Shown here piece after piece: positions 1-14,707 of a stretch of 14,707 nt of DNA. Both the position numbers and the translations under genes were made by a program. Position 1 is the first letter of the stretch, and every line of letters begins with the position of its first letter. Under the pieces are notes generated by a model that saw only the letters and a program-made list of their open reading frames with translations, ran no database searches and was not told the origin of the DNA. Source of the stretch: Gemmatimonadota bacterium. GTDB taxonomy: Bacteria; Latescibacterota; UBA2968; UBA8231. The DNA is taken from assembly GCA_038153405.1 (NCBI GenBank), contig JAYOYH010000085.1:1-14707 (forward strand), written 5' to 3'.

Positions 1-896
1 ACATAGTGCGCACCCAAGCCGTTTAGCATCGTCATGCAACCGGCCCACATGCAAATTCTCCCGTGGCTCCAGCCCATGCGCTGTAGCCGCTGATACAGGT
101 GTTTGTTATGCGCATGCAGCGGGTTTTCGCCGTTGATAAGCCGCCGTATTAGGGTGTAGGACGTGTCGAAGAGGTAGTAGGCCAAAAGGGCAAAAATGTG
201 CCGTGGCGACATGCCCGCCCCCACGGACAGAGCGGCCAGTGCCGCAACGGTGAAACCGCAAAAGAGCGAGCCCACGTCGCCCATAAAAATGCGGGCCGGC
301 GGTTTATTGAATACGAAAAAACCGGCCAGTGCCGCTGTAAAAAGACACGCCTGGGCAGCAACCTCTGCGCTAAACGGCGCGGCTTCAAAGGCCAGCCATC
401 CCGCGATGCACATCGATTGGGTAACGCTCAACCCGTCAATGCCGTCCATAAAGTTGAACGCATTGCACAGCCCAAAAAACCAAGCCAAACCGATGCCAAA
501 CCAGACGATTCCTCCGGCCGCAATGACCAGATCGCCGATGAGCAGCGGCTGCGCGGGAGCACCAACCAGAAAGCATGCCGCCGCGACTAGGAGAAGAATG
601 GTTTTTTCCAACGCGCTCAGCGGGCGCACGACATCGTCGATGACGGCCAGCAGCAACACGCCAAGTGCAGCCCACCACAGGGCAAATAGCGGCAGGTCAA
701 TGAGTAGATGACCGACGATAAAACCTGCAACAATCCCCAGCCCACCGGCCGTCGGCATCGGGGTAGAATGGGCACCGCGAGTGCTCGGCTCTACCAGATA
801 ACGGCGGCGGCGGACGACCCACAGCACGACAGCGGTTGCCAATAGAGCAGCGAGCCCGGCCGCGACACTCCCCCAAGCCAGCTCAGTCCTCGGCAT
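1..896 (-). CDS. WecA/WbpL/MraY-family (Pfam Glycos_transf_4) polyprenyl-phosphate N-acetylhexosamine-1-phosphate transferase; 3' end runs off the window
   Basis: Not in the ORF track; translated by hand from the ATG at 896-894: MPRTELAWGSVAAGLAALLATAVVLWVVRRRRYLVEPSTRGAHSTPMPTAGGLG...AVIDDVVRPLS...NAFNFMDGIDGL...FNKPPARIFMGDVGS...GENPLHAHNKHLYQRL...GAHY(V). It carries the family motifs (HxxPxPxxGG, DD, NxxNFMDGxDGL, FMGDxGS, HxxHLxxRL) and many hydrophobic helices. No stop before base 1; overlaps the SDR stop by 14 nt. Confidence 0.92.
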   Translation of the reverse strand, partial: MPRTELAWGSVAAGLAALLATAVVLWVVRRRRYLVEPSTRGAHSTPMPTAGGLGIVAGFIVGHLLIDLPLFALWWAALGVLLLAVIDDVVRPLSALEKTILLLVAAACFLVGAPAQPLLIGDLVIAAGGIVWFGIGLAWFFGLCNAFNFMDGIDGLSVTQSMCIAGWLAFEAAPFSAEVAAQACLFTAALAGFFVFNKPPARIFMGDVGSLFCGFTVAALAALSVGAGMSPRHIFALLAYYLFDTSYTLIRRLINGENPLHAHNKHLYQRLQRMGWSHGRICMWAGCMTMLNGLGAHY

Positions 897-1755
897 GGCG
901 ACCCCACGCTCCCACTAGGTGCAACCCCCGCTCAAAGGCGACCGGATCATAGTCCAAATCTCGCTGTGCCTCCCCAATATCGTACTGTTTGTCTTCCTGC
1001 AGACGCAGGATCTGTTCGGGTTCCAGCGGCAGTGGAATGCCCCACCGACGCAGGGCGCGCACCGCATAGACTGCAGGACGAACCGGCAGCGGCACGATCA
1101 GCGGAGCAACGCCGATAGAATGGCCGAGTGCCGCCAGCAAATCGCGGTAGCTCAGCGCACTGCGCCCGGCCAGCGCGTAGGACCGATGCTCAATGCCGGA
1201 CTGGCGCAGCGCCGCAACGGTGGCCTGTACGACATCGCCGACGTAGACGGGCTGGTGCAGCGCCTGGCCACGGCCAAAAATCGGCAGGAGCCGCCAGCGC
1301 CGCAGCTGCGCCCTGAGACGGCTGATATTGCGATCACAGCCCGGTCCATAGATCATCGATGGACGCAGCACGACCCACGGTTTTTCGCTCTTTTCTACTG
1401 CCTTTTCCGCATCTACGACCTCGGTAACAGCCGGCGCAGCCACGCGCGAAAAGCGCCACAGCGAGCTCATGAGCACAAAGCGTTCGACCTGCGGGCCCCC
1501 ATCTTTGAGAATGAGCGGCGCGTAGCGAATATGCGCCAAATGAATCACGGCGCGCACGCCTTCTAGTGCCCTGCACCGCACGCGCTCGTCGAGCAAATCG
1601 CCCTCCAGAATACCCATGCCCCAATCGCGCAGTGGGCGCAGCGCCTCGGCTGCTTTACCCGGACGCACCAAGCAGCGCACAGACTCGTCCTGCTGCGCCA
1701 GTTCGCGCAACAAAAAACCGCCGACGTATCCCGTCCCCCCGGTCACGAGGATCAT
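883..1755 (-). CDS. NAD(P)-binding atypical SDR / NAD-dependent epimerase-dehydratase family protein
   Basis: N-terminal Rossmann motif ILVTGGTGYVG, plus GDLLD, VIHLA, LRPSMIYG and QPVYVGDV. ATGA overlap (1752-1755) with the upstream glycosyltransferase stop. Confidence 0.88.
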   Translation of the reverse strand: MILVTGGTGYVGGFLLRELAQQDESVRCLVRPGKAAEALRPLRDWGMGILEGDLLDERVRCRALEGVRAVIHLAHIRYAPLILKDGGPQVERFVLMSSLWRFSRVAAPAVTEVVDAEKAVEKSEKPWVVLRPSMIYGPGCDRNISRLRAQLRRWRLLPIFGRGQALHQPVYVGDVVQATVAALRQSGIEHRSYALAGRSALSYRDLLAALGHSIGVAPLIVPLPVRPAVYAVRALRRWGIPLPLEPEQILRLQEDKQYDIGEAQRDLDYDPVAFERGLHLVGAWGRHAED

Positions 1756-2909
1756 GAGATATTGCGCTCCCGCAAGAGCTCTTCGTATAAATCCTGCACT
1801 TGCCGCAGCGCCTCATCGCGCGCAAAAGCACGGAGTGCGCGGCCGCGACCGTTGGCCCCTAGGCGGGCGCGCTCTGCAGGGGCAGCCAACAGCTTGCAGA
1901 TGGCATCAGACAGCGCTTCACTAGCGCCCTCTTCAACCAAAAGACCGGTTTCGCCATCGACCACGACCTCCGCCAAGCCTCCAACTCGGCTCGCCACGAC
2001 CGGGCAGCCCATGGCCATGGCTTCTACGACGGCAATACCCATGCCCTCCCGGCGCGACGGAGCGACAAATAGCGCGCATTCGCGCAGCCAGGGTCGCACG
2101 TCTTCTGCAAGACCGACAAAGCGCACGTGCTGGGCTACGGACAGTTCCTGCGCCAGCGCCTCGAGCTGCACTCTCAGGGGACCGTCGCCTACGACGACGA
2201 GTTCTACGCCTGGGTGTAAGCGCGCCACCGACGGCAGCGCGCGCAGCATTACATCCACGCCCTTTTCGGGCGTTAGGCTGCCAATCGCCACTAAACGCAG
2301 CCCCCGTTCGCTGGCCGGTTGCACCCCTTCGAGGGCGAAAAATGCGGGGGCTATCCCGTTGTATATAACCGCCCAACGGCGGTTGCGGCCTATATCCAAA
2401 TCTAGCATGTCCTCGCGCACCGCGCGACTAACGGCGACAAGCGCATCGGTGGTGCGGGCCGCGCGCCGCTCAACGGCGCGAAATAGACGCGCTTTCGTCG
2501 CGTTGCCCAACCATTCCTCCGGCACGCCGTGGTAGGTGTGCAGCACGAGAGGAACTCCTGCCCAGCGCGCCGCTTGACGCCCGAGAATACCCGCCTTGGC
2601 AATATGAGTATGGACGATGTCGCACGAGACGCGGTGCAAATGCCGATAGATCTGATAGAGCGCAGCCAGATCATCGCGCGCGTGCACGCTACGGCGCAGC
2701 GCAGCGATACGCGTGACAACGATGCCGCGATCGCGCGCTTCCGAAATCAGGTCGCCTTCGCCCGGCTCGCTATGACCGGTAATAATTTCGACGCAGAAGC
2801 GCGCGCGATCGAGTCCGGCCGCCAGTTCAATAACGTGGCGCGGCACGCCCCGTACGGCTAAGCGCGTGACGATATGGCAAATTCGAATAGGCCGATCTGC
2901 TGCGCTCAT
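1752..2909 (-). CDS. GT-B fold glycosyltransferase, family 4 (Glyco_transf_4 + Glycos_transf_1 type)
   Basis: RICHIVTRL..GVPRHV N-terminus, DIVHTHIAKAG, HTYHG, IYNGI, KGVD, and the donor-binding signature PSRREGMGIAVVEAMAMGCPVVASRVGGLAEVV..GETGLLV. Start moved from 3056 to the ATG at 2909 (MSAADRPIR), which forms an ATGA overlap with the GT2 stop at 2906-2908. Confidence 0.92.
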   Translation of the reverse strand: MSAADRPIRICHIVTRLAVRGVPRHVIELAAGLDRARFCVEIITGHSEPGEGDLISEARDRGIVVTRIAALRRSVHARDDLAALYQIYRHLHRVSCDIVHTHIAKAGILGRQAARWAGVPLVLHTYHGVPEEWLGNATKARLFRAVERRAARTTDALVAVSRAVREDMLDLDIGRNRRWAVIYNGIAPAFFALEGVQPASERGLRLVAIGSLTPEKGVDVMLRALPSVARLHPGVELVVVGDGPLRVQLEALAQELSVAQHVRFVGLAEDVRPWLRECALFVAPSRREGMGIAVVEAMAMGCPVVASRVGGLAEVVVDGETGLLVEEGASEALSDAICKLLAAPAERARLGANGRGRALRAFARDEALRQVQDLYEELLRERNIS

Positions 2910-3874
2910 ATCCACGAGAAGTAGCGCATGATCTGCATCGTTCCGACAACGCGACGCGACTGCACGCAGCGACGCCAGCGCAGGGCGCGCGGCAGCAGGC
3001 GCAGCGCATCGGATAGAGCCGGTAGCAAATGCAGCCAGCGGCGCGGCGAACGGCATAGCAACACCAACCAGACGAGGGGTTCACCCACCAGCCAGTAGGG
3101 CGCCAGCAGCAGCAGCTCTATAGATGAGGCATTTTTAACGAGGGTCAAATAGCGATTCTTCAAAATATGACGCTGCAGAAACGCGGGTTTGTCGACAAAG
3201 CGCATTTGTTCGTTCGAGGAACCCGATCCCACGTGCAGCGCACACGCCTGCGGCACGTAGCGCGCCTTCCAACCCAGCAGGCGAGCGCGCCAAGCTAAAT
3301 CTACATCTTCCCCATAGCTGAAATAGCATTCGTCAAAGTACTGGCCTTCGACGGCGATATCTTCCAACATCGATCGGCGAAATAAAATCAGCGCCCCACT
3401 GCAACCGAATATATCTTCCTCGCTGTCGACCTGTCCACTGTGCCGCGTGCGCATTTGCGGACGCAGAAAAAAGCCGCTGTTGAGCCATTCGTTCGTCGCT
3501 TGCTGATACACCTTTCCGGCAACGGCACCGAGCCCTTCATCTCCGCTCAGGATCGGCAGAACGCACCGCGAAAAATCGGTTTCGACAAAGACATCCGTGT
3601 TGAGTGCGAGTATCCAATCGTGAGAGCAGGCGGCGATCGCGCGATTATACCCGGCAGCAAAGCCTTTATTTTCCGCGTTGGCCAATAGTTTAACCTGCGG
3701 ATAGTGCTCGGCGATCCACTCGCGCGATCCGTCTGTGGAACCGTTGTCGACGACGACGACTTCGGCAGGAGGACAGCTCTGTCCATAGAGCGCTGATAGA
3801 CAGCGATCGATGTATTTCATGCCATTCCAATTGGCCAGCGCTACCGATATCTCCGGCGCCCGCGCAGGTTCCAT
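2906..3874 (-). CDS. GT2 family glycosyltransferase (GT-A fold; WbbL/rhamnosyltransferase-like subgroup)
   Basis: ISVALANWNG, VVVVDNGSTDGS, NKGFAAGYN, LNTD (DxD-equivalent), FDECYFSYGEDVDLAWR, HVGSGS, NRYL. Its start abuts the upstream stop with no gap. Confidence 0.92.
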   Translation of the reverse strand: MEPARAPEISVALANWNGMKYIDRCLSALYGQSCPPAEVVVVDNGSTDGSREWIAEHYPQVKLLANAENKGFAAGYNRAIAACSHDWILALNTDVFVETDFSRCVLPILSGDEGLGAVAGKVYQQATNEWLNSGFFLRPQMRTRHSGQVDSEEDIFGCSGALILFRRSMLEDIAVEGQYFDECYFSYGEDVDLAWRARLLGWKARYVPQACALHVGSGSSNEQMRFVDKPAFLQRHILKNRYLTLVKNASSIELLLLAPYWLVGEPLVWLVLLCRSPRRWLHLLPALSDALRLLPRALRWRRCVQSRRVVGTMQIMRYFSWI

Positions 3875-5125
3875 CTACCCACCACTAGCCGTAGTGAGCG
3901 TGCGCTTTTTCTGCTGCCAACCGGCAATTTCTTGTTTCAGTATGGCAAACTCACTCACCAAGCGCTCTCGCCGAGTTTCTACCGTCTGCGAAATCGATTG
4001 CAAATAGCGCTGCGTAGCGACAAAATAACTCTCGTCCGCCTTTTCTACCTCGCCGGCAGCCACCGCCAGCTGCGCGCGCTTCCAACTGATTTTTGCAAGG
4101 CGATGTAGGTAGTCGCGCTGGATTTCGTTGACTTCGCGCATGAGATTGAGCGCCTCGCCCGAATGCGACCGCTGGTATACCATCGCCAAGTACTTAAACG
4201 CCTGATCGGCGTAGTACTGGTGTTTCTTGCGATCAACGACTTCGCGCACTGCGCCCTCGTAGTAGATCCGCCCGAGTGCGAGCATATCGGCGTTGATTTC
4301 TCTTTCCATGCTGTCGGTGCGAAAGAGATCAGAGGCAATACTTTGTCCAGCAGTCCCGTCCTTTATCGAACGCGCCGTGCTATTGCGCCGATCAATCTTA
4401 AGGCGCCGATCGAGGATGGCCGCTTCCAGCGTGCGCACGCACTCTTTCATCCACGGCGCTGGATCCTGGCCCTGATCGGCGGCCATTTTGCTCAGCATCT
4501 GGTACATGATGAACATTTTTTTGTAAAAGTTCCCCATGAACTCCACTTCGATTAATTCCACGCCTTCGGCTTCTTCCTGCTTTTTAAAAAGGGCCAGCGA
4601 CAGGTTTTCCTTTACTCCCGCAATTAGCATCGACTCGGTATTATCTTTGGCCACTAGCGTTGCGTGCGCCTGCGAAACAAAGTAGCGAGGGTCTTGCGGC
4701 ATGAGTTTCTTGGAGCGGATCTGGGCGCGTTCGAGCAGGCTAGACCGACTGGCTCCCAGACTCACGTGTTCGGCCCAGTAGGCGCGCAGGCCGTCATCGT
4801 CCTTCACGTACTGGTTGGCGCGCTGTAGCCAGTCGCTGTTAAACTCTTTGTCTGTTTGCGCAATACGCCCCAACAAAATGCGAACGAGCTGGCGGCGCAG
4901 TTCCTCTTCGGAAATTTCGGGCTCGGGGACTTTTTCGGGCTCGGGTTCGACGGGTGGAGGGGGTTTTGCCGCTACGACGGGCTGCACGGCCTTGGCCGGT
5001 GGCTGCTCGGGCGTATGCCCATCGCTATCGCGCAGCAGACTCGCTCCGAGCCCGGCCAGCGCTGCACCGATGAAAACCACGCCTATAACAAGGGGGACGA
5101 TTTGACTTATCTTACTGGAACTCAT
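3875..5125 (-). CDS. Hypothetical bitopic membrane protein: N-terminal TM helix, Pro/Glu-rich linker, large alpha-helical (possibly TPR-like) domain
   Basis: Long ORF. Hydrophobic IVPLVIGVVFIGAALAGLGASLL, then PEQPPAKAVQPVVAAKPPPPVEPEPEKVPEPE, then an amphipathic-helix-rich region (LGRIYYEGA, AFKYLAMVY). ATG at 5125 preferred over TTG at 5137. The stop at 3875-3877 directly abuts the GT2 start. Confidence 0.75.
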   Translation of the reverse strand: MSSSKISQIVPLVIGVVFIGAALAGLGASLLRDSDGHTPEQPPAKAVQPVVAAKPPPPVEPEPEKVPEPEISEEELRRQLVRILLGRIAQTDKEFNSDWLQRANQYVKDDDGLRAYWAEHVSLGASRSSLLERAQIRSKKLMPQDPRYFVSQAHATLVAKDNTESMLIAGVKENLSLALFKKQEEAEGVELIEVEFMGNFYKKMFIMYQMLSKMAADQGQDPAPWMKECVRTLEAAILDRRLKIDRRNSTARSIKDGTAGQSIASDLFRTDSMEREINADMLALGRIYYEGAVREVVDRKKHQYYADQAFKYLAMVYQRSHSGEALNLMREVNEIQRDYLHRLAKISWKRAQLAVAAGEVEKADESYFVATQRYLQSISQTVETRRERLVSEFAILKQEIAGWQQKKRTLTTASGG

Positions 5126-5150
5126 GGCAGTTAGCAATTGTTATAAACCT

Positions 5151-5179
5151 AATGTAACTGAGTGTCATTTCCCGTGCAA
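5151..5179 (-). promoter_or_regulatory. Putative sigma70 promoter for the glycan operon
   Basis: Minus strand TTGCAC (5179-5174) - 17 bp - TACATT (5156-5151). An overlapping alternative is ATGACA (5168-5163) - 17 bp - TATAAC (5145-5140). Confidence 0.55.
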
Positions 5180-5188
5180 CAAAGGCGC

Positions 5189-5217
5189 TTGACTTCCTTG
5201 CCACTTGCTATGAATAT
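5189..5217 (+). promoter_or_regulatory. Putative sigma70 promoter for mpl (possibly leaderless transcript)
   Basis: TTGACT (5189-5194) - 17 bp - GAATAT (5212-5217). The A of the mpl ATG lies 7 nt after the -10 box, and there is no Shine-Dalgarno sequence. Confidence 0.45.
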
Positions 5218-5223
5218 TTCCTT

Positions 5224-6648
5224 ATGACATTACGCCAGGGCGCACATATTCACCTGATCGCCGCCTGCGGTATGGCTATGGGCTCGCTGGCTGCTATGCT
5301 GCGCGAAAAGGGCTATCGAGTGACGGGGTCAGACACCCACGTGTACCCGCCGATGAGCACCTATCTGCAGCAGGTGGGCATCGAGCTCTTCGAGGGCTTC
5401 TCTCCCGACAATCTCCGCGACGTGCCCGACCTAGTCGTCGTCGGCAACGCCGTATCGCGCGGCAATCCCGAGTTGGAGGCAGCACTCGACCTCCATATTC
5501 CCTATACCAGTTTGCCTGAGCTTCTCCGCGATGTCTTTATCCGCGGCAAGCACTCTGTAGTCGTTACCGGCACGCACGGCAAGACGACCACCACGGCTCT
5601 GACAGCGCATCTATTTGCCAGCCTACAGCTCGACCCCTCTTTCTTAATTGCCGGCCTGCCCAAAAATTTTCCACGCCCTTACCAGCTTGGCATGGGCAGC
5701 CACGTTATCGTCGAGGGCGATGAGTACGACAGCGCCTATTTCGCCAAATGGGCCAAGTTCTTCTACTATCTACCCGACACGCTCATCATCAACAATATCG
5801 AATTCGACCACGCCGACATATACGATTCTATAGAGCAAATTGCCAAGGCCTTTCGCCAATTGGTCAATACGGTGCCAAGGAGCGGTCTCATCATTGCCCA
5901 CGCATCTGATCCGGTCGTAGCAGACGTCGTCGGCATTGCCCACGCCCCAGTACAAACGGTTGGCGTTGAGGCAGAGGCCTACTGGCGCGCCGATATCCTT
6001 TCATCGACATCAGAGGGCACCGACTTCAGACTCTTTCGGCAAAACCAAGTTCAAGGCGATTTCCACCTGCCGCTGCACGGCGAATACAATGTTCGCAACG
6101 CGCTGGCCGGCATTGCCGCCTGCGGCCGTGCCGGTATCGCACCCGTAGCCATGCGATCGGCCCTAGCGACATTTGCAGGTGTCCGTCGGCGGCAAGAGCA
6201 GTTGGGCGAATGGGACGGTATTTTGCTCATCGACGACTTTGCCCACCACCCAACGGCCGTCGAGCACACGCTGCGCGCCATCGCCACGGCGCATCCAGGG
6301 CGGCCGATCTGGGCTATCTTCGAACCAGCGAGTGCAACCAATGCGCGCGCGCTCTTTGAGGAGCGCTATCGAACGGCTTTTGCGCCAGCGACCCATATTA
6401 TCATCGGCCGCGTGCCCCGTCCTGAACGGGCGCGAGACGACGAGCCCTTTTCTCCACAGCGCCTCGTCGAACGCCTGCAAACGGAGGGCAAGCAGGCCCT
6501 CTATATGCCCAACGCAGAGGATCTCTTATCCCACCTTTCAACCCATGTACAAGCGGGCGATATTGCCCTATTTATGAGCAACAGCGGGTTTTCTGGTATT
6601 CAACAGAAGCTGCTGGCCGCGCTGAGCAATCGCCATGCCTCGACGTAG
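5224..6648 (+). CDS. mpl: UDP-N-acetylmuramate:L-alanyl-gamma-D-glutamyl-meso-diaminopimelate ligase (murein peptide ligase, peptidoglycan recycling)
   Basis: HIHLIAACGMAMGSLA, VTGSDTHVYPPMST, GNAVSRGNPELE, P-loop GTHGKTTT, EGDEYDSAYF..K, NIEFDHADIY, DDFAHHPT, IFEP, MSNSGF. YPPMST, DEYDxAxF and MSNxGF distinguish Mpl from MurC. Confidence 0.92.
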   Translation: MTLRQGAHIHLIAACGMAMGSLAAMLREKGYRVTGSDTHVYPPMSTYLQQVGIELFEGFSPDNLRDVPDLVVVGNAVSRGNPELEAALDLHIPYTSLPELLRDVFIRGKHSVVVTGTHGKTTTTALTAHLFASLQLDPSFLIAGLPKNFPRPYQLGMGSHVIVEGDEYDSAYFAKWAKFFYYLPDTLIINNIEFDHADIYDSIEQIAKAFRQLVNTVPRSGLIIAHASDPVVADVVGIAHAPVQTVGVEAEAYWRADILSSTSEGTDFRLFRQNQVQGDFHLPLHGEYNVRNALAGIAACGRAGIAPVAMRSALATFAGVRRRQEQLGEWDGILLIDDFAHHPTAVEHTLRAIATAHPGRPIWAIFEPASATNARALFEERYRTAFAPATHIIIGRVPRPERARDDEPFSPQRLVERLQTEGKQALYMPNAEDLLSHLSTHVQAGDIALFMSNSGFSGIQQKLLAALSNRHAST

Positions 6649-7546
6649 ACGCTCCGCCTCGCGCTGGTTAATGGCCCTTTATGCGCTGCTGCTCCTGCCT
6701 AGTCTGCTGGTGGCCCAGGACCCCAATATAGACCGCCTGGCGCAGGAGTTGCAGAGCAACAACACGGGCATCCGTCGCAAGGCAGCAATAGCGCTCGGAC
6801 GCGCCAGTTATCCACAGAGCGTTAACCTGCTGCGCGGCGCCATGCGCAGCGAAAAGGACGTTTCCATCCGCCTAGAGATCGTGCGCGCGCTGCGCCACAT
6901 CGTCTTCCAGCGCTTTCCCGGCTACCCCGAGGCGATGCGAGCGCTAGGCGAAGCGGCCGACGATGGGATAGAGAGCGATGAGTTGGTGCGCCTGCGTTCC
7001 AGCGAAGCGCTGTGGGAAGCGGCAAAAAAGGACCTGCTCAACCCCGTGCCTTTTCTACAGCGCAATTTGGGCGATAGCAGTCAGCGCCTGCGCCTTTCTG
7101 CCGTGCTCATGCTGCGCAAACTCGGCACGCCGCAAACCATAGACCCGCTGGGACGCGCTGCGCTAGACAAAACGCAGAGCGACGCTATTCGCCTGCGGGC
7201 AATTGATGCGATCGGCGCCGTGTCACTTTCCGACCCGGGTGCGGTAGGACGCGCCATTGCCGAAAGCAATCGGCGAACAGCGCAATTGCTTGGCCAACCC
7301 CCACTAGTGGGCCCGGGCAGCGTTGAGCCGCGCCACGAGCGCCAGGTTGGCTATCTATCCTCCGTTGTCCGCGATCCCGACAACAGCCCGACGCTCATGC
7401 TGCAGGCGGTAAAGTCGCTGGGAAAAGTCAAAGACAAGAGCGCCATGGCCGCGCTGCAAGAAATTATTGCAACGCACTCCAACCAAACCGTGCGCAAACA
7501 GGCCACGCGCGTTCTGAGCCACATCATGGCACGCCAGTACGAGTGA
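6635..7546 (+). CDS. Secreted/periplasmic HEAT-repeat (PBS-lyase-like) protein
   Basis: Signal-peptide-like N-terminus (MPRRRRSASRWLMALYALLLLPSLLVA|QD). Repeated HEAT units: IRRKAAIALG, IRLEIVRAL, VRLRSSEAL, LRLSAVLML..LG, IRLRAIDAIG, LQAVKSLG, VRKQATRVL. Overlaps the mpl stop by 14 nt; alternative ATG at 6671. Confidence 0.82.
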   Translation: MPRRRRSASRWLMALYALLLLPSLLVAQDPNIDRLAQELQSNNTGIRRKAAIALGRASYPQSVNLLRGAMRSEKDVSIRLEIVRALRHIVFQRFPGYPEAMRALGEAADDGIESDELVRLRSSEALWEAAKKDLLNPVPFLQRNLGDSSQRLRLSAVLMLRKLGTPQTIDPLGRAALDKTQSDAIRLRAIDAIGAVSLSDPGAVGRAIAESNRRTAQLLGQPPLVGPGSVEPRHERQVGYLSSVVRDPDNSPTLMLQAVKSLGKVKDKSAMAALQEIIATHSNQTVRKQATRVLSHIMARQYE

Positions 7547-7615
7547 TGTGTAAACCGGGTAGCACGGGCGACGCCGTTCTATCACAGCTCTCGCTCTCTC
7601 TGCCGCCGCCTAGAC

Positions 7616-7677
7616 TTTAATAAGTTCATTAAAAATAATATTTTATATATAATCTGTGCAATGGCACGATTTTTGGT
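7616..7677 (+). promoter_or_regulatory. AT-rich promoter region with a sigma54-like -24/-12 site and a sigma70-like -35/-10 pair
   Basis: TGGCACG-ATTT-TTGGT at 7662-7677 (consensus TGGCACG-N4-TTGCW, one mismatch at -12). TTCATT (7625-7630) - 17 bp - TATAAT (7648-7653). Almost pure A/T tract 7616-7653 in a GC-rich context. Confidence 0.5.
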
Positions 7678-7725
7678 AAACCCCTTGAAGAAGGCGTTAT
7701 CCTCTCTCACATCAAGGAGTTTACC

Positions 7726-8373
7726 ATGCGCGTATGTATGCTCGCTCTGCTCTTGGCCTGGCCGGCTTATGCCCAACATGCCTCCGTCGTGTTTTCAGAG
7801 ATCATGTGGATGGGCAGCAGTGCTTCTAGTGCAGATGAATGGGTTGAATTATACAATGTTAGCGATACTGCCCAGGATTTGCGCGGCTGGACGCTAACCC
7901 GGCTGAGCGATCAGGGGGAAGATGTCCTGTTGACCATTGAAGAGGGCCAGATTGGCGCTAGAGAAACATTTCTCATCGCCAATTACGCGGCAGACCACGC
8001 CAACTCTCATTTGGCCGCAGTCCCTCAATTGGTCAATTCCGCCCTTTCGCTGCCCAATAGCAAACTACAGCTCTCCCTGTATGCAGGTCATCCGGATGAA
8101 GGCGCAGAATTGGTCGATGTGGCCTACGACGGCCGCGGCGCCCCGCTAGCTGGAGATGCCCAATTAAAGCGGTCGATGGAGCGGGCAGACCTCTACGGCG
8201 ATGGCCGTTTGCAGTCTAGCTGGCAAACAGCGGAAGTCGCCTATGGTTGGGACCCCGAAAGTCAAGAAATGGGTACGCCGGGCACGCTGCCCATTTACCT
8301 CAGCGCTCCCCCAGTTTCGCCAACAACGGCGGTAACGTCGGCAAATTGGGCCGCAGTAAAACGGTACCGATAA
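7726..8373 (+). CDS. Secreted lamin-tail-domain (LTD) protein with a short C-terminal tail motif
   Basis: SD AAGGAG at 7714-7719. Signal peptide MRVCMLALLLAWPAYA|Q. LTD signature VVFSEIMW...DEWVELYN.S....DLRGWTL, later GTPG. Ends PPVSPTTAVTSANWAAVKRYR. Confidence 0.85.
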   Translation: MRVCMLALLLAWPAYAQHASVVFSEIMWMGSSASSADEWVELYNVSDTAQDLRGWTLTRLSDQGEDVLLTIEEGQIGARETFLIANYAADHANSHLAAVPQLVNSALSLPNSKLQLSLYAGHPDEGAELVDVAYDGRGAPLAGDAQLKRSMERADLYGDGRLQSSWQTAEVAYGWDPESQEMGTPGTLPIYLSAPPVSPTTAVTSANWAAVKRYR

Positions 8374-8412
8374 AAGCAAAAGAGGCCCCGGGTGAAAATC
8401 CCGGGGCCTCTT
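8372..8412. terminator. Rho-independent terminator between convergent genes (strongest for the minus strand, possibly bidirectional)
   Basis: Perfect 13-bp inverted repeat AAGAGGCCCCGGG (8380-8392), loop TGAAAAT, CCCGGGGCCTCTT (8400-8412). The minus-strand transcript continues into TTTTGCTTTT. Confidence 0.88.
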
Positions 8413-8436
8413 CGCATCGTTTATATACCTACTACA

Positions 8437-9795
8437 TCATTGCGTAAACTGGGTAACGTTGGCAATACCACCCGGCTGCGTGAGCGCATATACAATCAGG
8501 TTTACGCCAAACTGCAGACCGCGCTCGCGCGCATCGGCCAGCGGATCACCCCAGTACCAGCTGATATTGAGATCGGAAAATACAACGGCGACGCGGCCGC
8601 GCAGTTCCAACATCTCCATATCAAAGACGTTGCCTCCGGGAGCTCCACCCATGGGCGGACCATCGGGGAAATCCCAGAAACTGTAGAATAGATCGTGCGT
8701 CTTGGGAACTTTCTGCCACTTCGACCCATCGCTTCCCAACACCAGCGGATCTTTCATCAACGCCTTGAACTGGCGATCGAAAGGCGTGCCGGCAACTCCA
8801 GCTTCTTTTCCTTCCAACCCGTTTTCGGCGTCGCTTTGGCGAATTTCCTCGGCGTACATAAATCCACCGTTCTTGAGGTAGTCACCCAAGTTTTTCTTTT
8901 CCGTATCGCTAATTTGCAGCACCGCGTCATTGCCCGTAACGTAAATTAGCGGAGCCGTCATAATGCGCGGATCAGAAAATTCCAAGGTAGTGCCCTCAAT
9001 ACGAGCCTGTATCTTGGTGTGGTCGCGCATATAGCGCATCAACTCTTCAACGGCCGTCGGGAAGCGATCCCGGTTTTTATCGGCTATATCGTAGTCAATG
9101 ACGGTCATATTGAAAAAGCCGCGGATGTTCTTCTTGTTGTCCGGGTCCTGGATCAGAATCGCCTGGTAGCGCCCAACGTCCAAGTCGCCTACGTTGAGCA
9201 GTTCGTGCTTGAGGCTCAGCGCCTCCTGCACGGGAGCCGCGGTCTCAGTCAGCTCGACCATTTCAACGTCGTCGAACGACAGTTCTTCGGCCTTCGCACC
9301 ACTAAATTGACCGAGGACCTGCGTGCCGGGCATAACGCCCTGCAGAAGATCACTACCCACAGCACTCACGTCGGCCATAGCCGAAATATCCGTCGGCATA
9401 TCCGGGGGAGCCATGGACTGTAGCATCTCCATTTGCACTTCTGAAATCTCGGGACGCTTGGCCAGGTCGAAGTTCTTTTCCAGAATGGGCGGAGGCGGCT
9501 GGAAGCGAACGACTTTCTCTTCTTCTTCAGCTATGTCGACGCCAAAGTAATAGTCATACGCGACTACGCCGCCGTGCGCGGCAAGAGCTAGCAAAAACGC
9601 TATGTTCATGCCCAGACGACGGCCGGTCGTTGCCTTCCACAACGCCACCAAGAGCACAGCCAAGCCTGCAATGCCTACCGCATAGGCGACAACCTTAAAC
9701 AGCAGGAATAGGGCGTGGATTACAACGGCCACACCGACGGCGGCATAGGCGAACTTCTTGCGCTCGTCCTGTACTTTCTTCTTATACTCGTCCAC
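8437..9795 (-). CDS. DUF4159-like domain protein with three N-terminal TM helices and a TonB-like Pro/acidic linker
   Basis: GTG start with GAGGG about 10 nt upstream. The C-terminal region matches my recollection of DUF4159 (APLIYVTGN, LGDYLKNGGFMYAE, GRVAVVFSD..W, GLQFGVNLIVYAL). TM helices at about aa 15-33, 35-53 and 63-84; FQPPPP linker. Confidence 0.75.
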   Translation of the reverse strand: MDEYKKKVQDERKKFAYAAVGVAVVIHALFLLFKVVAYAVGIAGLAVLLVALWKATTGRRLGMNIAFLLALAAHGGVVAYDYYFGVDIAEEEEKVVRFQPPPPILEKNFDLAKRPEISEVQMEMLQSMAPPDMPTDISAMADVSAVGSDLLQGVMPGTQVLGQFSGAKAEELSFDDVEMVELTETAAPVQEALSLKHELLNVGDLDVGRYQAILIQDPDNKKNIRGFFNMTVIDYDIADKNRDRFPTAVEELMRYMRDHTKIQARIEGTTLEFSDPRIMTAPLIYVTGNDAVLQISDTEKKNLGDYLKNGGFMYAEEIRQSDAENGLEGKEAGVAGTPFDRQFKALMKDPLVLGSDGSKWQKVPKTHDLFYSFWDFPDGPPMGGAPGGNVFDMEMLELRGRVAVVFSDLNISWYWGDPLADARERGLQFGVNLIVYALTQPGGIANVTQFTQ

Positions 9796-9834
9796 TAAGG
9801 TATTTCCCTCTCTCTAGAAGGAACCGTAACAGCA

Positions 9835-10242
9835 TCAGTTCCTCTGGGGCTCCGTGGCAATGATCTGATCTACCACTCCAACCTGCCGCGCAATATCCAT
9901 AATCTGAACGATCTGTCCGTGCGTCGACCGCTCGTCTCCCTGGATAATCATCATCGTAGTATTGTCTAGCAGCCGCCTCTTTTCTTGGAGCTCATCTTTC
10001 AACGTTGCAAACGTAACGTCTTTGTGATTGAGCTTCATATTACCGTCCTGATCAACGACGATAAAGAGGTTCTCTTTTTCCGGTGCCTGCGCCTCTTCGG
10101 CTTCAGGTAATTTGATGTCGAGACCCGGCGTTACGGCAAACACCGCCGTAACCATAAAAAAGATTAGCAGCTGAAATACCACGTCGATCATCGGCGTCAG
10201 ATCGGGCATGGCCATTTCTTTTTTCTCAGCTTGCTTAGCCAT
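9835..10242 (-). CDS. exbD: Biopolymer transport protein ExbD/TolR
   Basis: DLTPMIDVVFQLLIFFMVT TM helix with the conserved Asp, IKLPEA, IQGDERSTHGQIVQIMDIARQVG. Directly downstream of exbB. Confidence 0.95.
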   Translation of the reverse strand: MAKQAEKKEMAMPDLTPMIDVVFQLLIFFMVTAVFAVTPGLDIKLPEAEEAQAPEKENLFIVVDQDGNMKLNHKDVTFATLKDELQEKRRLLDNTTMMIIQGDERSTHGQIVQIMDIARQVGVVDQIIATEPQRN

Positions 10243-10274
10243 CTCTATTTACGTCCTTCCGATAAGAGCAGTAA

Positions 10275-10928
10275 TTAAGCGGCCCGCGAGCTCTGCAAGC
10301 GGCGCAGGAGGGCATCGACAAATCCGTGACCATACGCTTCGAACTGAATGGCCTTGCCCGTAGCGCGATTGCTGAAATAGGTGAAGATAGCAATGGACGG
10401 AATCGAAATGACCAGCCCGGTGACCGTCGTGATAAGCGCTTCGGAAATACCAGCGGCCACGATCGTCGGCTCACCCAAGCCTTTTTCAGCAATACCTTCA
10501 AAGGCGTTGATCATACCGTTAACCGTGCCCAGCAGACCGAGCAACACCACGGACTTAGAAACAAAGTCGATCACCGCCAAATAGCGCTCGAGGTAATTCA
10601 GCGCAGCACGCTCAACGGTGCCGTTCATTTCCTCGCGCATTTCTTCCACAGAGCGCTGCTCGCGCGAAAGGTGCTCGAAACGCTCAATCCCTTCGCCGAA
10701 AACCTCACCTTCCATCTTGCCGACCTCTACACAAAACTCCTTGAGCTGTTCAATGGACGTGCCCGAGTCAATGCGCGCATTGACATCGTTGGTTACCTCG
10801 GCCAATTCATCCTCGGTGCGGAGCTTAGCGAAGGTGTATACGCGCTCCAGGAAGAAGGCCAGAGAAAGCACTGACCACAAGGCCAATGGCCACATGAAGG
10901 GTCCACCTTCTTGAAAAAATTCAATCAT
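10275..10928 (-). CDS. exbB: MotA/TolQ/ExbB proton channel family protein
   Basis: GGPFMWPL...ER first helix, LLGLLGTVNGMINAF, AAGISEALITTVTGLVISIP. SD AAGGAGG upstream. Confidence 0.95.
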   Translation of the reverse strand: MIEFFQEGGPFMWPLALWSVLSLAFFLERVYTFAKLRTEDELAEVTNDVNARIDSGTSIEQLKEFCVEVGKMEGEVFGEGIERFEHLSREQRSVEEMREEMNGTVERAALNYLERYLAVIDFVSKSVVLLGLLGTVNGMINAFEGIAEKGLGEPTIVAAGISEALITTVTGLVISIPSIAIFTYFSNRATGKAIQFEAYGHGFVDALLRRLQSSRAA

Positions 10929-10984
10929 TGTTCTCTATCCCTCCTTTTTGGGCTCGAACGTTTTCTTGCGCATTTCACAAAATC

Positions 10985-13900
10985 TTATAAGACGCGGGCT
11001 TCCTGCATCACTTCTAGCTGCTGCTTAGAAAAGTCGACCTGTTGCAAATACTTCGAACTGTCGCTGTATTTGTCGACAACCTCCTGAAATATTGCACCCG
11101 CCTGACGAAATTCTTCCTGCGCCATATAAGCCGCGCCGATATTGACCAAGGCGTTGACCGCCTGATCGCTCTCGGGGTACTTGACCTGCACCTCTTTGAA
11201 GATCTCGATGGCCTCTTCGTACTTTTTCTGGTCAAAGAGGACTTCCCCTTGAGCATAGAGGTTATACGCATCAATTTCCGCCAAGTGGCCCAACAGCGTT
11301 TCGGCCTTGCTAACGAGTTGGCGATCGCGGCCTTGCAACTTGTCGAGTGGGAACAACTCCAAGAAGCGCTCGTAGCTTGCAGTGGCTTTATCGTACTCTT
11401 TGAGGCCGTAGTAATAGTCTCCCAAGGTGAACTGGCTCTGCGGCCCGTAGCGACCATCCGGATGATCCGTGACAATCCGTTCAAAAATCGGCACGGCTTC
11501 CTCTTTGCGTTCCATGGTGATCAACGCCCAAGCCTTATTGTATAGGGCATCATCCACATAGTCCGACCCGGGGTACTGCGCAACGACGCGGTCGTATATG
11601 GCCATGCATTCGCCTAACACGCCGTCCTTCTCGTCGCGCGTTCCGCGGTTGGTGAGGTTAAACAGCGCCTCGCCTGCGCGGAAAACCGCCTCGGGGGCGT
11701 AGCGCTCGTTGGGATACTTTGTAGCAAGCGAACTAAACGTCTCACTGGCTTCGCGCCACTTGCCCAATCGATAGCGCGCCCATGCGTCGTAATAGTAAGC
11801 GTGGACGGCTTTGTCGTCGTCGGGATACATCGTGTAGTAGGTCTGGAACGCCTCCGACATCTTCGGCAAGACGCCGATATCCCCATTCGACAGCTTTTGG
11901 TAGGCGACGCCTATTTGAAACTGCGCGTTGCGCGCCCATCCAATCTGGGGATAGTTCTCAATAATCTTGCTGTAGGTTGCTATCGATGCCGTGTACTCAC
12001 CCGCTTTGTAGTACGAGTTGCCCTGCACGAAGAGCGCATTGGCTATGCTTTCCTCGTTCGAGGCCAGATCAATCAGCTCCTGTGCCGCTTCAATACTCTG
12101 CTGGAACTGATTGAGACGGAAGTAGGCATTGGCCAAGCGAATGAGCAGGCGCTCCTTGTCCTCCGTTGAATCGATGCCGGCTAACATCTCTTCGTAGATG
12201 CGAATGGCATCTTTAGGATCGCGCTTTTCGGCCATGGAGATCAACTGCAGGCGAGCCGAGCGCGCCAGGCTCTCATCGCCCGACTTGACGACCGCGTTCA
12301 GCAACCTCTCTGCTTCGGCATCGCTGCCCTGTGCCGAATACGACAGCGCCATGGAAAACTCAACTTTGAGCTGCATGGTCTGCGGCAGGCGCTGATCGAG
12401 AAGCCAGCGGTAGTCGTTCAGGGCACGATCATAGCGCCCCGTCCAGTGATAGGCCAGCGCGCGCCCGTAGCGCGTATCGCGGATAAGTTCGCTCTCCGGA
12501 TACTCTTCCAACACCTTGGTATAGCGCTCGATGGCATCGAGGTAGTTCTTGTTGTTCAGGTCGAGCTGCGCCATCTGATAATGTGCCCGCGCTTCCAGCG
12601 CGCGGTCGCCCGTAACACCGGCGAGCAGTTGGTTGAGCATCTTGCGCCCTTCGTCGGGGCGCCCTTCGCTAATGTGTATATTGGCCGCCTCAATGAGTGC
12701 CGCAATATAGGTCTCGCGCGAGTCTCGATCGACCTGAGAGAAAGCCGCAACCGCTTCGTCAGCTCGTCCCTCATCGCGATAGAGGATACCCAAACCATAG
12801 AATGCATCCGCTGAGTAACGCGTCTCCTGATAGCTCTCGGTAATTGCCCGATAGGCGTCAACGGCTTCCTTAACCTTCTGCTGTTCGTAGTTGATACGGG
12901 CAATGCGCAGAAGGCATAGCGGAGCCTGCTCTGAGCGAGGAAAGCTCTCGACTGCTTGGCTATAGCTTTCGATAGCCGAACCGGCCTCCCCCATTTTCTC
13001 GGCCGACCAGCCCGCGCTGTAGAGCGATGCCGAACGCAGACCCGTATCGCTATCGGGGTATTCGGACAGCACTTTCAGATAATCGTCTCGAGCCTGACCG
13101 TACTCGTTGGCAAAATAGCGCGCCTCGCCCTTCTGGTACTGAGCGTTGGGCGGATAGGGTGTATCGGCGTAGAGCTCAATCACCTGATTGTAGGCGGTCC
13201 AGGCATCGTCAAACTTCTTCCACTCCATGTAGTTGTCGCCGATGCGCATCTGGACTTTCGCCTTGTAGAAGCGCTCTTCCGCCGTTTCCTGAGCGGCGAT
13301 TAGCTCCTGATAGGCCTGCTCAAACTGGTCCGTCTTGCGGAAGATCTCGGCTACGCGCAGCGATGAGGTTTCAAAGAGCTGACGATAGTTTTCAAAGTCG
13401 ACGTTCTTACCTTCGCGAAACGAACCGCGCAGCAGCTCAAACATGCGATCGTATAGGCTGCGCACTTCGCGATAGGCTGCAATGGCGTCTTCGTCCTGAC
13501 TCAGCTTGTCGAATGAATTGGCCTTGAGATAGACCGACTGGGCGATAACGGGGCTGTTGGGATACTTATCCAGCACGACCTGCGCCGCGCTGACGGCCTC
13601 TTCAAAACGCCCCTTCTCATACAGCGCATTGGCAATGCGGAACTGGGCATCCGGCGCATAGCGATCCTCGGGATAGGCTTCGAGCATGGCCTGCAACGTC
13701 ACGATGCTCTCGTCGTAATCCTTTTGGTTGAACTGGCTCCACCCACTATAGTAGAAGGCCTTGCCCGCCTCACTCGTGTTCGGAAACAGTTCGACATAGC
13801 GTTTGTATTCCTGAGCTGCCTCGGCCCACTCTTTGGCCAAGAATCGCGTTTCGGCCACCTGGAACTGCACCAGCTGACGAAACTCGTAGGGCACGCCTCT

Positions 13901-14224
13901 GACGTCCATGACATGGCGATATGCATCTACGGCCTGCTCGTGCTGCCCACTCTTCTTGTAGGCATTACCCAGCTGATACCAAGCGGCGGCAACGACCGGC
14001 AGTTCAAGTTCGTCGCCAAAGTTTACGCGCACACTATCCGTGCGCACAGCCCGGCTTTTGAACTTGACGATCTTCGAGTACTCGATGATCGCTCCTTCGT
14101 ATTCGCCAAGCGCGTAAAGCGACTGCCCAGCATCAAAACTGGTCTTCAGGTTTTGTGGCACGGGAAGAAATAGGCTAGCGCCTAACCCTAATCCCAGTGC
14201 AATGAGTCCTGCCCAGACCGTCAT
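10985..14224 (-). CDS. Very large tetratricopeptide-repeat protein (BamD/CpoB-type TPR units), N-terminal signal/anchor
   Basis: 1079 aa with recurrent (Y/F)Px(S/T/D)xxAxxAx(F/Y)xxG units (FPNT, YPED, YPNS, YPDS, FPRS, YPES, YPQI, YPDD, YPNE, YPGS, HPDG, YPES and others). Hydrophobic N-terminus VWAGLIALGLGLGASLFL without a lipobox Cys. SD AAGGAG at 14238-14233. Confidence 0.9.
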   Translation of the reverse strand: MTVWAGLIALGLGLGASLFLPVPQNLKTSFDAGQSLYALGEYEGAIIEYSKIVKFKSRAVRTDSVRVNFGDELELPVVAAAWYQLGNAYKKSGQHEQAVDAYRHVMDVRGVPYEFRQLVQFQVAETRFLAKEWAEAAQEYKRYVELFPNTSEAGKAFYYSGWSQFNQKDYDESIVTLQAMLEAYPEDRYAPDAQFRIANALYEKGRFEEAVSAAQVVLDKYPNSPVIAQSVYLKANSFDKLSQDEDAIAAYREVRSLYDRMFELLRGSFREGKNVDFENYRQLFETSSLRVAEIFRKTDQFEQAYQELIAAQETAEERFYKAKVQMRIGDNYMEWKKFDDAWTAYNQVIELYADTPYPPNAQYQKGEARYFANEYGQARDDYLKVLSEYPDSDTGLRSASLYSAGWSAEKMGEAGSAIESYSQAVESFPRSEQAPLCLLRIARINYEQQKVKEAVDAYRAITESYQETRYSADAFYGLGILYRDEGRADEAVAAFSQVDRDSRETYIAALIEAANIHISEGRPDEGRKMLNQLLAGVTGDRALEARAHYQMAQLDLNNKNYLDAIERYTKVLEEYPESELIRDTRYGRALAYHWTGRYDRALNDYRWLLDQRLPQTMQLKVEFSMALSYSAQGSDAEAERLLNAVVKSGDESLARSARLQLISMAEKRDPKDAIRIYEEMLAGIDSTEDKERLLIRLANAYFRLNQFQQSIEAAQELIDLASNEESIANALFVQGNSYYKAGEYTASIATYSKIIENYPQIGWARNAQFQIGVAYQKLSNGDIGVLPKMSEAFQTYYTMYPDDDKAVHAYYYDAWARYRLGKWREASETFSSLATKYPNERYAPEAVFRAGEALFNLTNRGTRDEKDGVLGECMAIYDRVVAQYPGSDYVDDALYNKAWALITMERKEEAVPIFERIVTDHPDGRYGPQSQFTLGDYYYGLKEYDKATASYERFLELFPLDKLQGRDRQLVSKAETLLGHLAEIDAYNLYAQGEVLFDQKKYEEAIEIFKEVQVKYPESDQAVNALVNIGAAYMAQEEFRQAGAIFQEVVDKYSDSSKYLQQVDFSKQQLEVMQEARVL

Positions 14225-14274
14225 GTGTGCGTCTCCTTACTCTGTCCTCGAGTGAGAGCTGTATTCAGTTAGAC

Positions 14275-14707
14275 TTAGAATCCGTAGGCAAACGAGAAGC
14301 GATGCGCGCCGTTGGTCTCGGTCAGATCCAGCGGAATGTGATAGCCGTAGTCAAAGTGCAGCTTGTTCCAGCGGTAACCCAGTCCCGCATTCAGATCGCC
14401 GGTGGCATCTTCCTCAAAAATCTTGCTGCCGCCGGCCCGCAGCATCAGGCCTTCGACCAGCGTCGTCTCACCGCCCAATACCAAGCGGCTATCCGGCGCA
14501 TCGCCCGACACGTCGCGGCGCACATACTGCACCGAAACTAGCGAGGAAGCATTGAGTTGGTACGCCAGACCCACGTGCAAATCCATCGGCAGCGAGCCGT
14601 CCTCGGAACCCAGTTGGGCATCTGGTGCACAGTCAGTCCCACAGGAAGCATTGGGCTGGTTCAGATTCTTGACCATCAGACCAAACTGCGCGCCCTTCAG
14701 CGGGCTC
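14275..14707 (-). CDS. Outer-membrane beta-barrel, PorV/PorQ (FadL-like) family, C-terminal part; 5' end outside the window
   Basis: The frame stays open to the right edge (SPLKGAQFGLMVKNLNQP...). Amphipathic strands and motifs typical of PorV/PorQ-like proteins: G.MVKNL, LP..LHVGLAY, LMLRAG, AGLGYRW..LHFDYGY, G.HRFSFAYGF, with a C-terminal Phe BAM signal. Confidence 0.72.
   Translation of the reverse strand, partial: SPLKGAQFGLMVKNLNQPNASCGTDCAPDAQLGSEDGSLPMDLHVGLAYQLNASSLVSVQYVRRDVSGDAPDSRLVLGGETTLVEGLMLRAGGSKIFEEDATGDLNAGLGYRWNKLHFDYGYHIPLDLTETNGAHRFSFAYGF

Follow-up and report, generated by a model that had tools for sequence, protein, structure and literature searches.

We analyzed a 14,707 bp stretch of DNA from a bacterium of the phylum Latescibacterota (JAYOYH010000085.1), called here the window, which is the entire contig G000:C85 of its own genome, G000; in the labels used below C, L and f stand for contig, locus and family. 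Its right part contains an operon of five co-oriented open reading frames (ORFs) on the minus strand, separated by 50, 56, 32 and 39 nt, which encode a small outer-membrane barrel, a long TPR protein, the motor subunits ExbB and ExbD, and a DUF4159 fusion that we call the arm (Table 1). The operon ends in a hairpin of -33.9 kcal/mol (z -5.2), and none of 200 shuffled sequences was equally stable. The close packing of the five genes with a terminator behind them, the intact-looking motor and the long TPR protein had been noted in an earlier examination of the letters alone (the sequence-only reading), and these observations held. The interpretation that we tentatively favor is that the operon may be a dedicated Ton-like energizer of one expanded clade of outer-membrane barrels of ~900 aa (giant barrels), probably for nutrient import.

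Table 1. The operon genes and the hairpin that follows them (window coordinates)
Feature	Position	Strand	Remarks
Small outer-membrane barrel, 3' part	14275..14707	-	truncated by contig end; full length ~310 aa, FadL/PorV superfamily; 5' part at G000:C10:1-777
TPR protein, 1079 aa	10985..14224	-	many TPR Pfam models; N-terminal hydrophobic segment at residues 2-20; predicted periplasmic scaffold
ExbB/TolQ-type motor subunit	10275..10928	-	Pfam MotA_ExbB, 82 bits; GLLGTV and ISEALITT motifs
ExbD/TolR-type motor subunit	9835..10242	-	Pfam ExbD, 100 bits; transmembrane Asp20
DUF4159 fusion, putative TonB-like transducer	8437..9795	-	Pfam DUF4159, 89 bits at residues 234-438
Intrinsic terminator-like hairpin at operon end	8379..8413	-	14-pair stem

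Structure and conservation of the operon

The Pfam matches of the TPR, ExbB, ExbD and DUF4159 proteins were all above the cut-offs. Features of Ton-type systems were revealed both in the motor, with its conserved Thr motifs (GLLGTV from residue 131 and ISEALITT from residue 161 of ExbB) and transmembrane Asp (D20 of ExbD), and in the arm, which has a His-bearing anchor helix of the SHLS type (the motif name is used in the available part of PMC12204202). The arm contains three predicted N-terminal membrane helices, the last of which bears the motif (S/A)xxxH74. His74 is present in 33 of 39 aligned arm relatives, and Ser or Ala is found four residues earlier in 38 of the 39; distant arm orthologues appear to carry the His-bearing helix alone. 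In the structural model (pLDDT 68) the three helices are followed by a low-confidence linker (about residues 92-207) and a compact C-terminal head, and a Pro-rich segment is conserved. The best PDB match of the head is 4i66 (Z 20.0, rmsd 2.3, 188 residues aligned), and the next ones are glutamine-amidotransferase-like folds (Z 8-9); according to the accessible part of PMC4702930, DUF4159 was assigned to its Pfam clan on structure only. The sequence-only reading had proposed that this protein is a non-canonical TonB-like transducer. The His anchor and the DUF4159 head agree with this proposal, and the number of predicted helices had to be corrected from one to three.

The strongest indication of how these parts work together comes from evolution. 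At four loci (L042, L076, L077 and L078) the motor genes are only 23-27% identical to those of the window and include two ExbD genes; ExbB is visible in L042 and L076, while L077 and L078 are cut. The N-terminal anchor of the arm is replaced at these loci too, and the rest of the arm is 64-76% identical to that of the window. In the trees the two swapped ExbBs lie outside the window ExbB clade (99/96), which is a separate clade of its own, and their DUF4159 heads lie inside the window's clade (100/99). This motor swap is the best evidence that the anchor and the motor very likely form one unit.

It should be mentioned that arm-like proteins were also found in other contexts. Stand-alone arms are located at G000:C24:40183-41508 and C32:49557-51419. 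Short secreted DUF4159 proteins that lack the anchor are encoded at G000:C21:4822-5712 (47% identical to the arm head) and, near genes that look MoxR-like in sequence, at C9:25120-25803. Three genomes (G041, G043 and G128) contain 12-26 matches to the arm linker, far above their counts of TPR matches; from this excess, arms may act as interchangeable heads of motors that they share.

The order barrel-TPR-ExbB-ExbD-DUF4159 was found in 26 of 40 related loci, a conserved order that was to be expected under the sequence-only reading, and 21 loci additionally contain the genes for a CBM9-like protein and a lipoprotein. The other 14 loci stop before the barrel or are short, and none of them has an alternative gene at that place. 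This order is kept in families f6, f11 and f13, while in f9 a giant barrel replaces the small one (ten loci were read, four of which are cut). The operon is real and is conserved across five families of Latescibacterota. RNA contigs from four runs of three studies span positions 8348-14707, bridging the barrel-TPR and ExbB-ExbD junctions, and are sparse over positions 1-8347; their cover of the giant-barrel genes on contig C10 is patchy and unfit for ranking genes.

The region upstream of the operon lies on G000:C10, which we joined to the window because of the synteny of related loci. There the small barrel is preceded by a lipoprotein gene, a CBM9-like gene and then genes of giant barrels alternating with genes of proteins with CHU_C/FlgD-like tails. 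No TonB, TolB or Pal genes were found in this stretch, in agreement with their reported absence from the operon.

Giant barrels, their partners and the distribution of the module

In total, genome G000 encodes 23 giant barrels. A quick tree of its 22 full-length barrels and 10 barrels from relatives contained three clades: C7, C34 and a 17-copy clade, the last of which includes the f9 barrel (genome G054) encoded directly upstream of an orthologous TPR gene. The C7 and C34 clusters each have their own TPR, ExbB, DUF4159 and two ExbD genes. With three motor modules for three barrel clades and the C7 and C34 modules already taken, the window motor is left for the 17-copy clade.

The barrels are accompanied by tailed proteins. 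A tailed gene is located directly upstream of 15 of the 23 barrels in G000, and, of the 51 tailed genes, 36 have a barrel at a distance of 15 kb or less, as against 128 of 828 long ORFs. Matches to CHU_C numbered 58 and 61 in two genomes with the module and only 2-3, all weak, in three genomes without it. F5/8 type C matches were revealed in 3 of 14 tailed proteins examined and Pfam enzyme matches in none of them; in another set, 4 of 7 partners contain carbohydrate-binding-like domains. An ABC importer adjoins the C35 cluster, and a gene for a parvulin-type peptidyl-prolyl isomerase (PPIase) is situated inside a barrel cluster. A different C-terminal pattern, W-G/A-x-I/L/V/M-K, occurs in the last 17 residues of the lamin-tail protein encoded at window positions 7726-8373 (plus strand) and of 19 other ORFs of G000, mostly after T-A-V-E. 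These 20 ORFs include the CBM9-like gene that precedes the operon, and 40 residues further in the pattern was found in one ORF; this end resembles a sorting signal, which would be the second one at the C-terminus.

The giant barrel was modelled as a large beta-barrel (pLDDT 80) with about 24 strands, counted manually from the DSSP list. Its sequence had no match among solved structures. Its fold matched generic barrels (Z 9-14), with the structural protein SlpA at the top (Z 13.9, rmsd 5.2, 382 residues aligned), within 1 Z unit of porins. In a family atlas neither the giant barrel (the nearest family, DUF6029 at 0.89, is a mere lead) nor the upstream lipoprotein could be assigned to a named family. 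The giant-barrel family comprises 1266 clusters at 50% identity. In the homologue and cluster look-ups of this analysis, the named matches carried Latescibacterota and Gemmatimonadota labels and one Omnitrophota label. The SlpA match might suggest that the motor inserts, folds or remodels giant barrel-partner complexes and that nothing is transported through the barrel, and the same could be said of the PPIase gene, of the resemblance of the TPR repeats to BamD/CpoB models and of weak BamG matches of the small barrel. Nevertheless, SlpA is tied with porins, the BamG matches score 19-28 bits where the cut-off is 250, and the existence of 17-23 diverging barrels, each of them partnered, points to a variety of substrates, so we consider such an assembly or upkeep machine improbable.

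The distribution of the module was analyzed in a single sample of 151 genomes of Latescibacterota, which are related to each other. SprA was found in 150 of them, the giant barrel in 95, the arm linker in 93 and the C-terminal part of the TPR protein in 89 (E<=1e-15); the last three were each absent from all 51 genomes of families f2-f4. Barrel and arm occurred together in 93 genomes, the barrel only in two, the arm only in none and neither in 56. At the level of clades, with thresholds of 1e-80 and 1e-20 that were set by eye at gaps, the close barrel clade was accompanied by the window-type arm in 66 genomes and was alone in nine, and the arm was never alone; a further 20 genomes hold only distant paralogues of both. 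From these data the giant-barrel system is quite probably the client of the module.

A special case is a locus of genome G042 (L217:7308-10010), which was compared with L187:9363-18713 of its sister genome G048: the sister genome has two barrel copies here, and the TPR, ExbB, ExbD and DUF4159 genes that separate them are gone in G042. Presumably either recombination has deleted these genes or the assembly has collapsed at this place.

The distribution bears also on the idea that the module is a general replacement of PorL/PorM and powers all SprA secretion in the phylum. SprA is nearly universal, GldM_1st was detected in none of the 151 genomes, and G000 has a PorU-PorV pair and 56 type A tail matches. 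However, of the 56 genomes that lack both the arm and the giant barrel, 55 retain SprA, and the five complete or near-complete genomes of this group that were tested carry 9-19 type A tails each. The distribution test thus goes against the module as an SprA-linked energizer, and the general replacement, largely refuted, is very improbable; the PorLM stand-in that had been suggested from the sequence alone is likewise not supported.

The small barrel and type IX secretion

The secretion system of type IX (T9SS) of G000 includes one SprA (as in other genomes of the sample), PorU-PorV, type A tails and tailed cargo. PorL/M/N-type profiles gave no matches above the cut-offs (GldM 0/41, GldM_1st 0/151, GldL 0/5, GldN 0/5), and since no positive control rang in these searches, absence is unproven. 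With the same reservation, the genome corresponds to the predicted type that has SprA and PorV and lacks PorL/PorM. Families f2, f3, f4 and f8 have SprA and type A tails, with neither PorM nor the module detected; in the 55 genomes that have SprA, no detected PorM and no module, type IX secretion is therefore driven by another source or by none.

The sequence-only reading considered the barrel at the end of the window to be of the PorV type. The window fragment scored 28 bits against PorV_fam (NF033709; cut-off 90), and none of seven full-length relatives reached the cut-off (60.7-81.6 bits). The genome's own PorU-PorV pair is located on G000:C91 and scored 665 and 257 bits, and the small barrel is 26% identical to the PorV-like protein of this pair. 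Additional weak matches were to PorP and BamG, and a phmmer search of the full small barrel against the PDB gave no real match. To judge from these scores, the small barrel is a distant paralogue within the PorV superfamily, and the true PorU-PorV pair lies elsewhere in the genome. Nor could the supposition that the module is built around this barrel be upheld, as in the f9 operon (2 loci) the small barrel is missing and a giant barrel precedes the TPR gene.

The small barrel is present in two copies. The operon copy and the stand-alone copy had 95.6-100% DNA identity in all 10 genomes of family f1 that were compared, mostly from just past the signal peptide to the stop codon; the identity between six genomes of one genus was 81-93%, and two copies compared in G048 (family f6) were 81.8% identical. 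The two copies evidently undergo concerted evolution (gene conversion), which explains why the contigs break at this gene, with the 5' flanks on C10 and C49 and the 3' flanks on C85 and C66. The gene has two loop variants, and for each of them RNA contigs run on into the part that the copies share. An allelic bubble, which we had considered as the cause of the 82% overlap between G000:C85 and C10, was dropped for the two-copy reading. The stand-alone copy (L207-L225) adjoins pyrH in many f1 genomes, and G048 contains four copies.

The small barrel is central to the possibility that the module is a dedicated energy chain of the T9SS for type-B-like cargo, in which the small barrel would bind the tail in SprA, and the motor, arm and TPR protein would extract the complex and hand the cargo to the giant barrel for display. 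Its weak PorV and PorP matches, its position before the TPR gene in those 26 of 40 loci, the absence of its close relatives (E<1e-30) from f2-f4 and f8 and the matchless GldL/M/N searches are all consistent with this possibility. On the other hand, there is one SprA per genome for three motor modules, each with its own giant-barrel clade; the small barrel is lacking in the f9 operon and stands alone in genomes G009, G015 and G133, all without the window-type arm; and since module-lacking genomes retain SprA and type A tails, another release route must exist. On balance, we regard this chain as the main alternative to the import reading, though an unlikely one.

The motor might also be an ordinary Ton or Tol-Pal motor that sits by chance among envelope genes, given that its ExbB and ExbD are unremarkable members of their families and that G000 has seven TonB-dependent receptor matches. 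However, a canonical TPR-ExbB-ExbD-ExbD-TonB operon exists at G000:C52, and TonB_C matches in G000 were limited to C52 and C2. TolB was over the cut-off in none of five family genomes and Pal in none of four, with positive controls ringing in both cases (for Pal, G028 was positive), and the window ExbB falls in a separate clade, which leaves the ordinary motor with a negligible probability. The fifth MotA/ExbB match in G000 (C53) is, by context, flagellar motA. Among 14 ExbB loci from seven module-lacking genomes, a subset of their ExbB matches, we found TonB-type, Tol-Pal and motA-like loci and one other small locus. A small conserved locus of f2/f4 encodes a membrane protein of ~285 aa, ExbB and ExbD without TonB (L108:8188-9682, L110:6784-8787, L111:7737-9620, L118:7237-9212).

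As to the rest of the window, the mpl-like Mur ligase and HEAT-repeat genes at 5224-7546 (plus strand) converge on the operon end in genus relatives. The 420-aa protein encoded at 3875-5137 (minus strand) contains a Pro-rich stretch and, N-terminally, a hydrophobic segment; it gave no Pfam or NCBIfam matches.

Possible mechanism and known systems

Returning to the Ton-like energizer of giant barrels, the job of the module may be import, a view that we hold with slightly less than even confidence because of the many diverging barrel-partner pairs, the carbohydrate-binding-like domains in some partners and the nearby ABC importer. The sequence-only reading had left a choice between a T9SS-like variant and a new import system; the second option now leads and the first has receded, and the module tracks the ~900-aa barrels and type-B-like tailed proteins that lie outside the window.

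In the mechanism that we propose, protons would flow through ExbB5-ExbD2 via Asp20, and the DUF4159 protein would dock on the motor by its His-bearing helix in the manner of TonB. The arm linker would span the periplasm, and the head, aided by the TPR protein, would touch the periplasmic face of the barrels. A single motor operon would suffice in trans for the 17 barrels in the clade, as TonB does for scattered transporters. SprA would export the surface protein via its type-B-like tail, and each barrel would carry one such protein as a SusD-like lid (compare SusC/SusD), with the two-copy small barrel as a possible shared carrier or anchor for these tails. With the arm and the TPR protein as intermediaries, the motor would then pull on the complexes of barrel and partner, and material bound by the partner would be imported.

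Several observations weigh against this proposal. The giant-barrel scan scored just six candidates per genome. Most of the nine genomes that have the close barrel clade and no detected window-type arm are incomplete, but G019 (97%) and G042 (96%) count against a strict dependence of the barrels on the module, and in G042 the four genes beside the small barrel are lacking. As the absences of the module fall in f2, f3, f4 and f8, they perhaps represent two to four losses, not 56. The N-terminal segment of the giant barrel (residues 22-95) was modelled at low confidence, and no TonB-dependent-receptor or plug matches were found in Pfam or NCBIfam for seven giant barrels. Position 74 of the arm is Glu in two of the 39 aligned rows and is missing in four others. 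The hydrophobic N-terminus of the TPR protein in the window has no charged n-region, so a cytoplasmic location is possible. Finally, the RNA runs were picked via the window sequence, and their contigs do not prove one single transcript.

A bolder hypothesis, which we consider somewhat doubtful, is that the module belongs to a third class of proton-driven outer-membrane transport beside Ton and the T9SS. Each barrel clade would have its own ExbBD motor, whose anchor can be swapped, together with a DUF4159 head and a TPR rail across the periplasm; these would energize dozens of unnamed ~24-strand barrels, each with a T9SS-exported lectin-like lid. The whole would be the main substrate-capture apparatus of most Latescibacterota, a phylum in which SprA would function without any PorL/PorM.

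Comparison with known systems revealed that: (i) the module shares with Ton and SusC/SusD the 5:2 motor motifs, the His anchor, a nearby ABC importer and the proposed service of one operon to many scattered barrels with surface partners, but its arm lacks TonB_C, its barrels have no receptor or plug match, instead of being SusD lipoproteins its partners bear T9SS-like tails, and the 1079-aa TPR protein is always there; (ii) like type B secretion of the T9SS with PorP/SprF shuttles powered by GldLM-GldKN, as presented in the accessible parts of PMC12618676, PMC10994853, PMC12635249 and PMC9143113, it is associated with CHU_C-like tails, tailed genes directly upstream of barrels, SprA and PorU-PorV, while its barrels of ~900 aa belong to no named family, its motor is of the ExbBD type, and GldL, GldM and GldN were not detected; (iii) the Agl-Glt core (Luciano et al., 2011, PMC3169522, available in part) likewise has a TolQR-type motor, a TonB-like transducer, TPR proteins and several sets of paralogues in a genome, each with its own job, but its GltG ends in a TonB domain, and its outer-membrane parts are small OmpA-like proteins.

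The common parts of the Agl-Glt core, together with the two ExbD genes in the swapped loci and in the C7/C34 modules, might suggest a machine that moves or pulls surface adhesins. Such a machine is highly improbable here: the five window proteins, the only ones searched, had no Glt family match in NCBIfam, G000 has flagellar motA/motB genes, and the core alone is deemed unlikely to drive motility in the accessible part of PMC3169522.

The closest likeness is to the force transducers with vWA heads (Williams-Jones et al., 2025, PMC12204202), whose operons, as described in the available part of that paper, contain a gene for a TPR protein, one resembling tolQ, one or more tolR-like genes and then an anchored protein with a His helix, a disordered linker rich in Pro and a head other than TonB_C; their function is given there as unknown. 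Literature searches, in which few subscription journals were covered, found no description of a DUF4159-headed operon or of Latescibacter together with type IX secretion; the accessible part of PMC4454575 mentions only ordinary TonB import, and DUF4159 has no mention in the text and supplement of PMC12204202 as far as these were available. By analogy, the operon matches the vWA-transducer design with a different head, since DUF4159 has a glutamine-amidotransferase-like fold and not that of vWA. Unlike for the vWA transducers, the outer-membrane clients can be named here from distribution. Thus a role is proposed for DUF4159, a domain scarcely mentioned in the literature searched, and a likely client is named for a non-canonical TonB-like transducer from a class of unknown function; this client, a large family that has undergone heavy expansion in these bacteria, may serve as their principal path of uptake.

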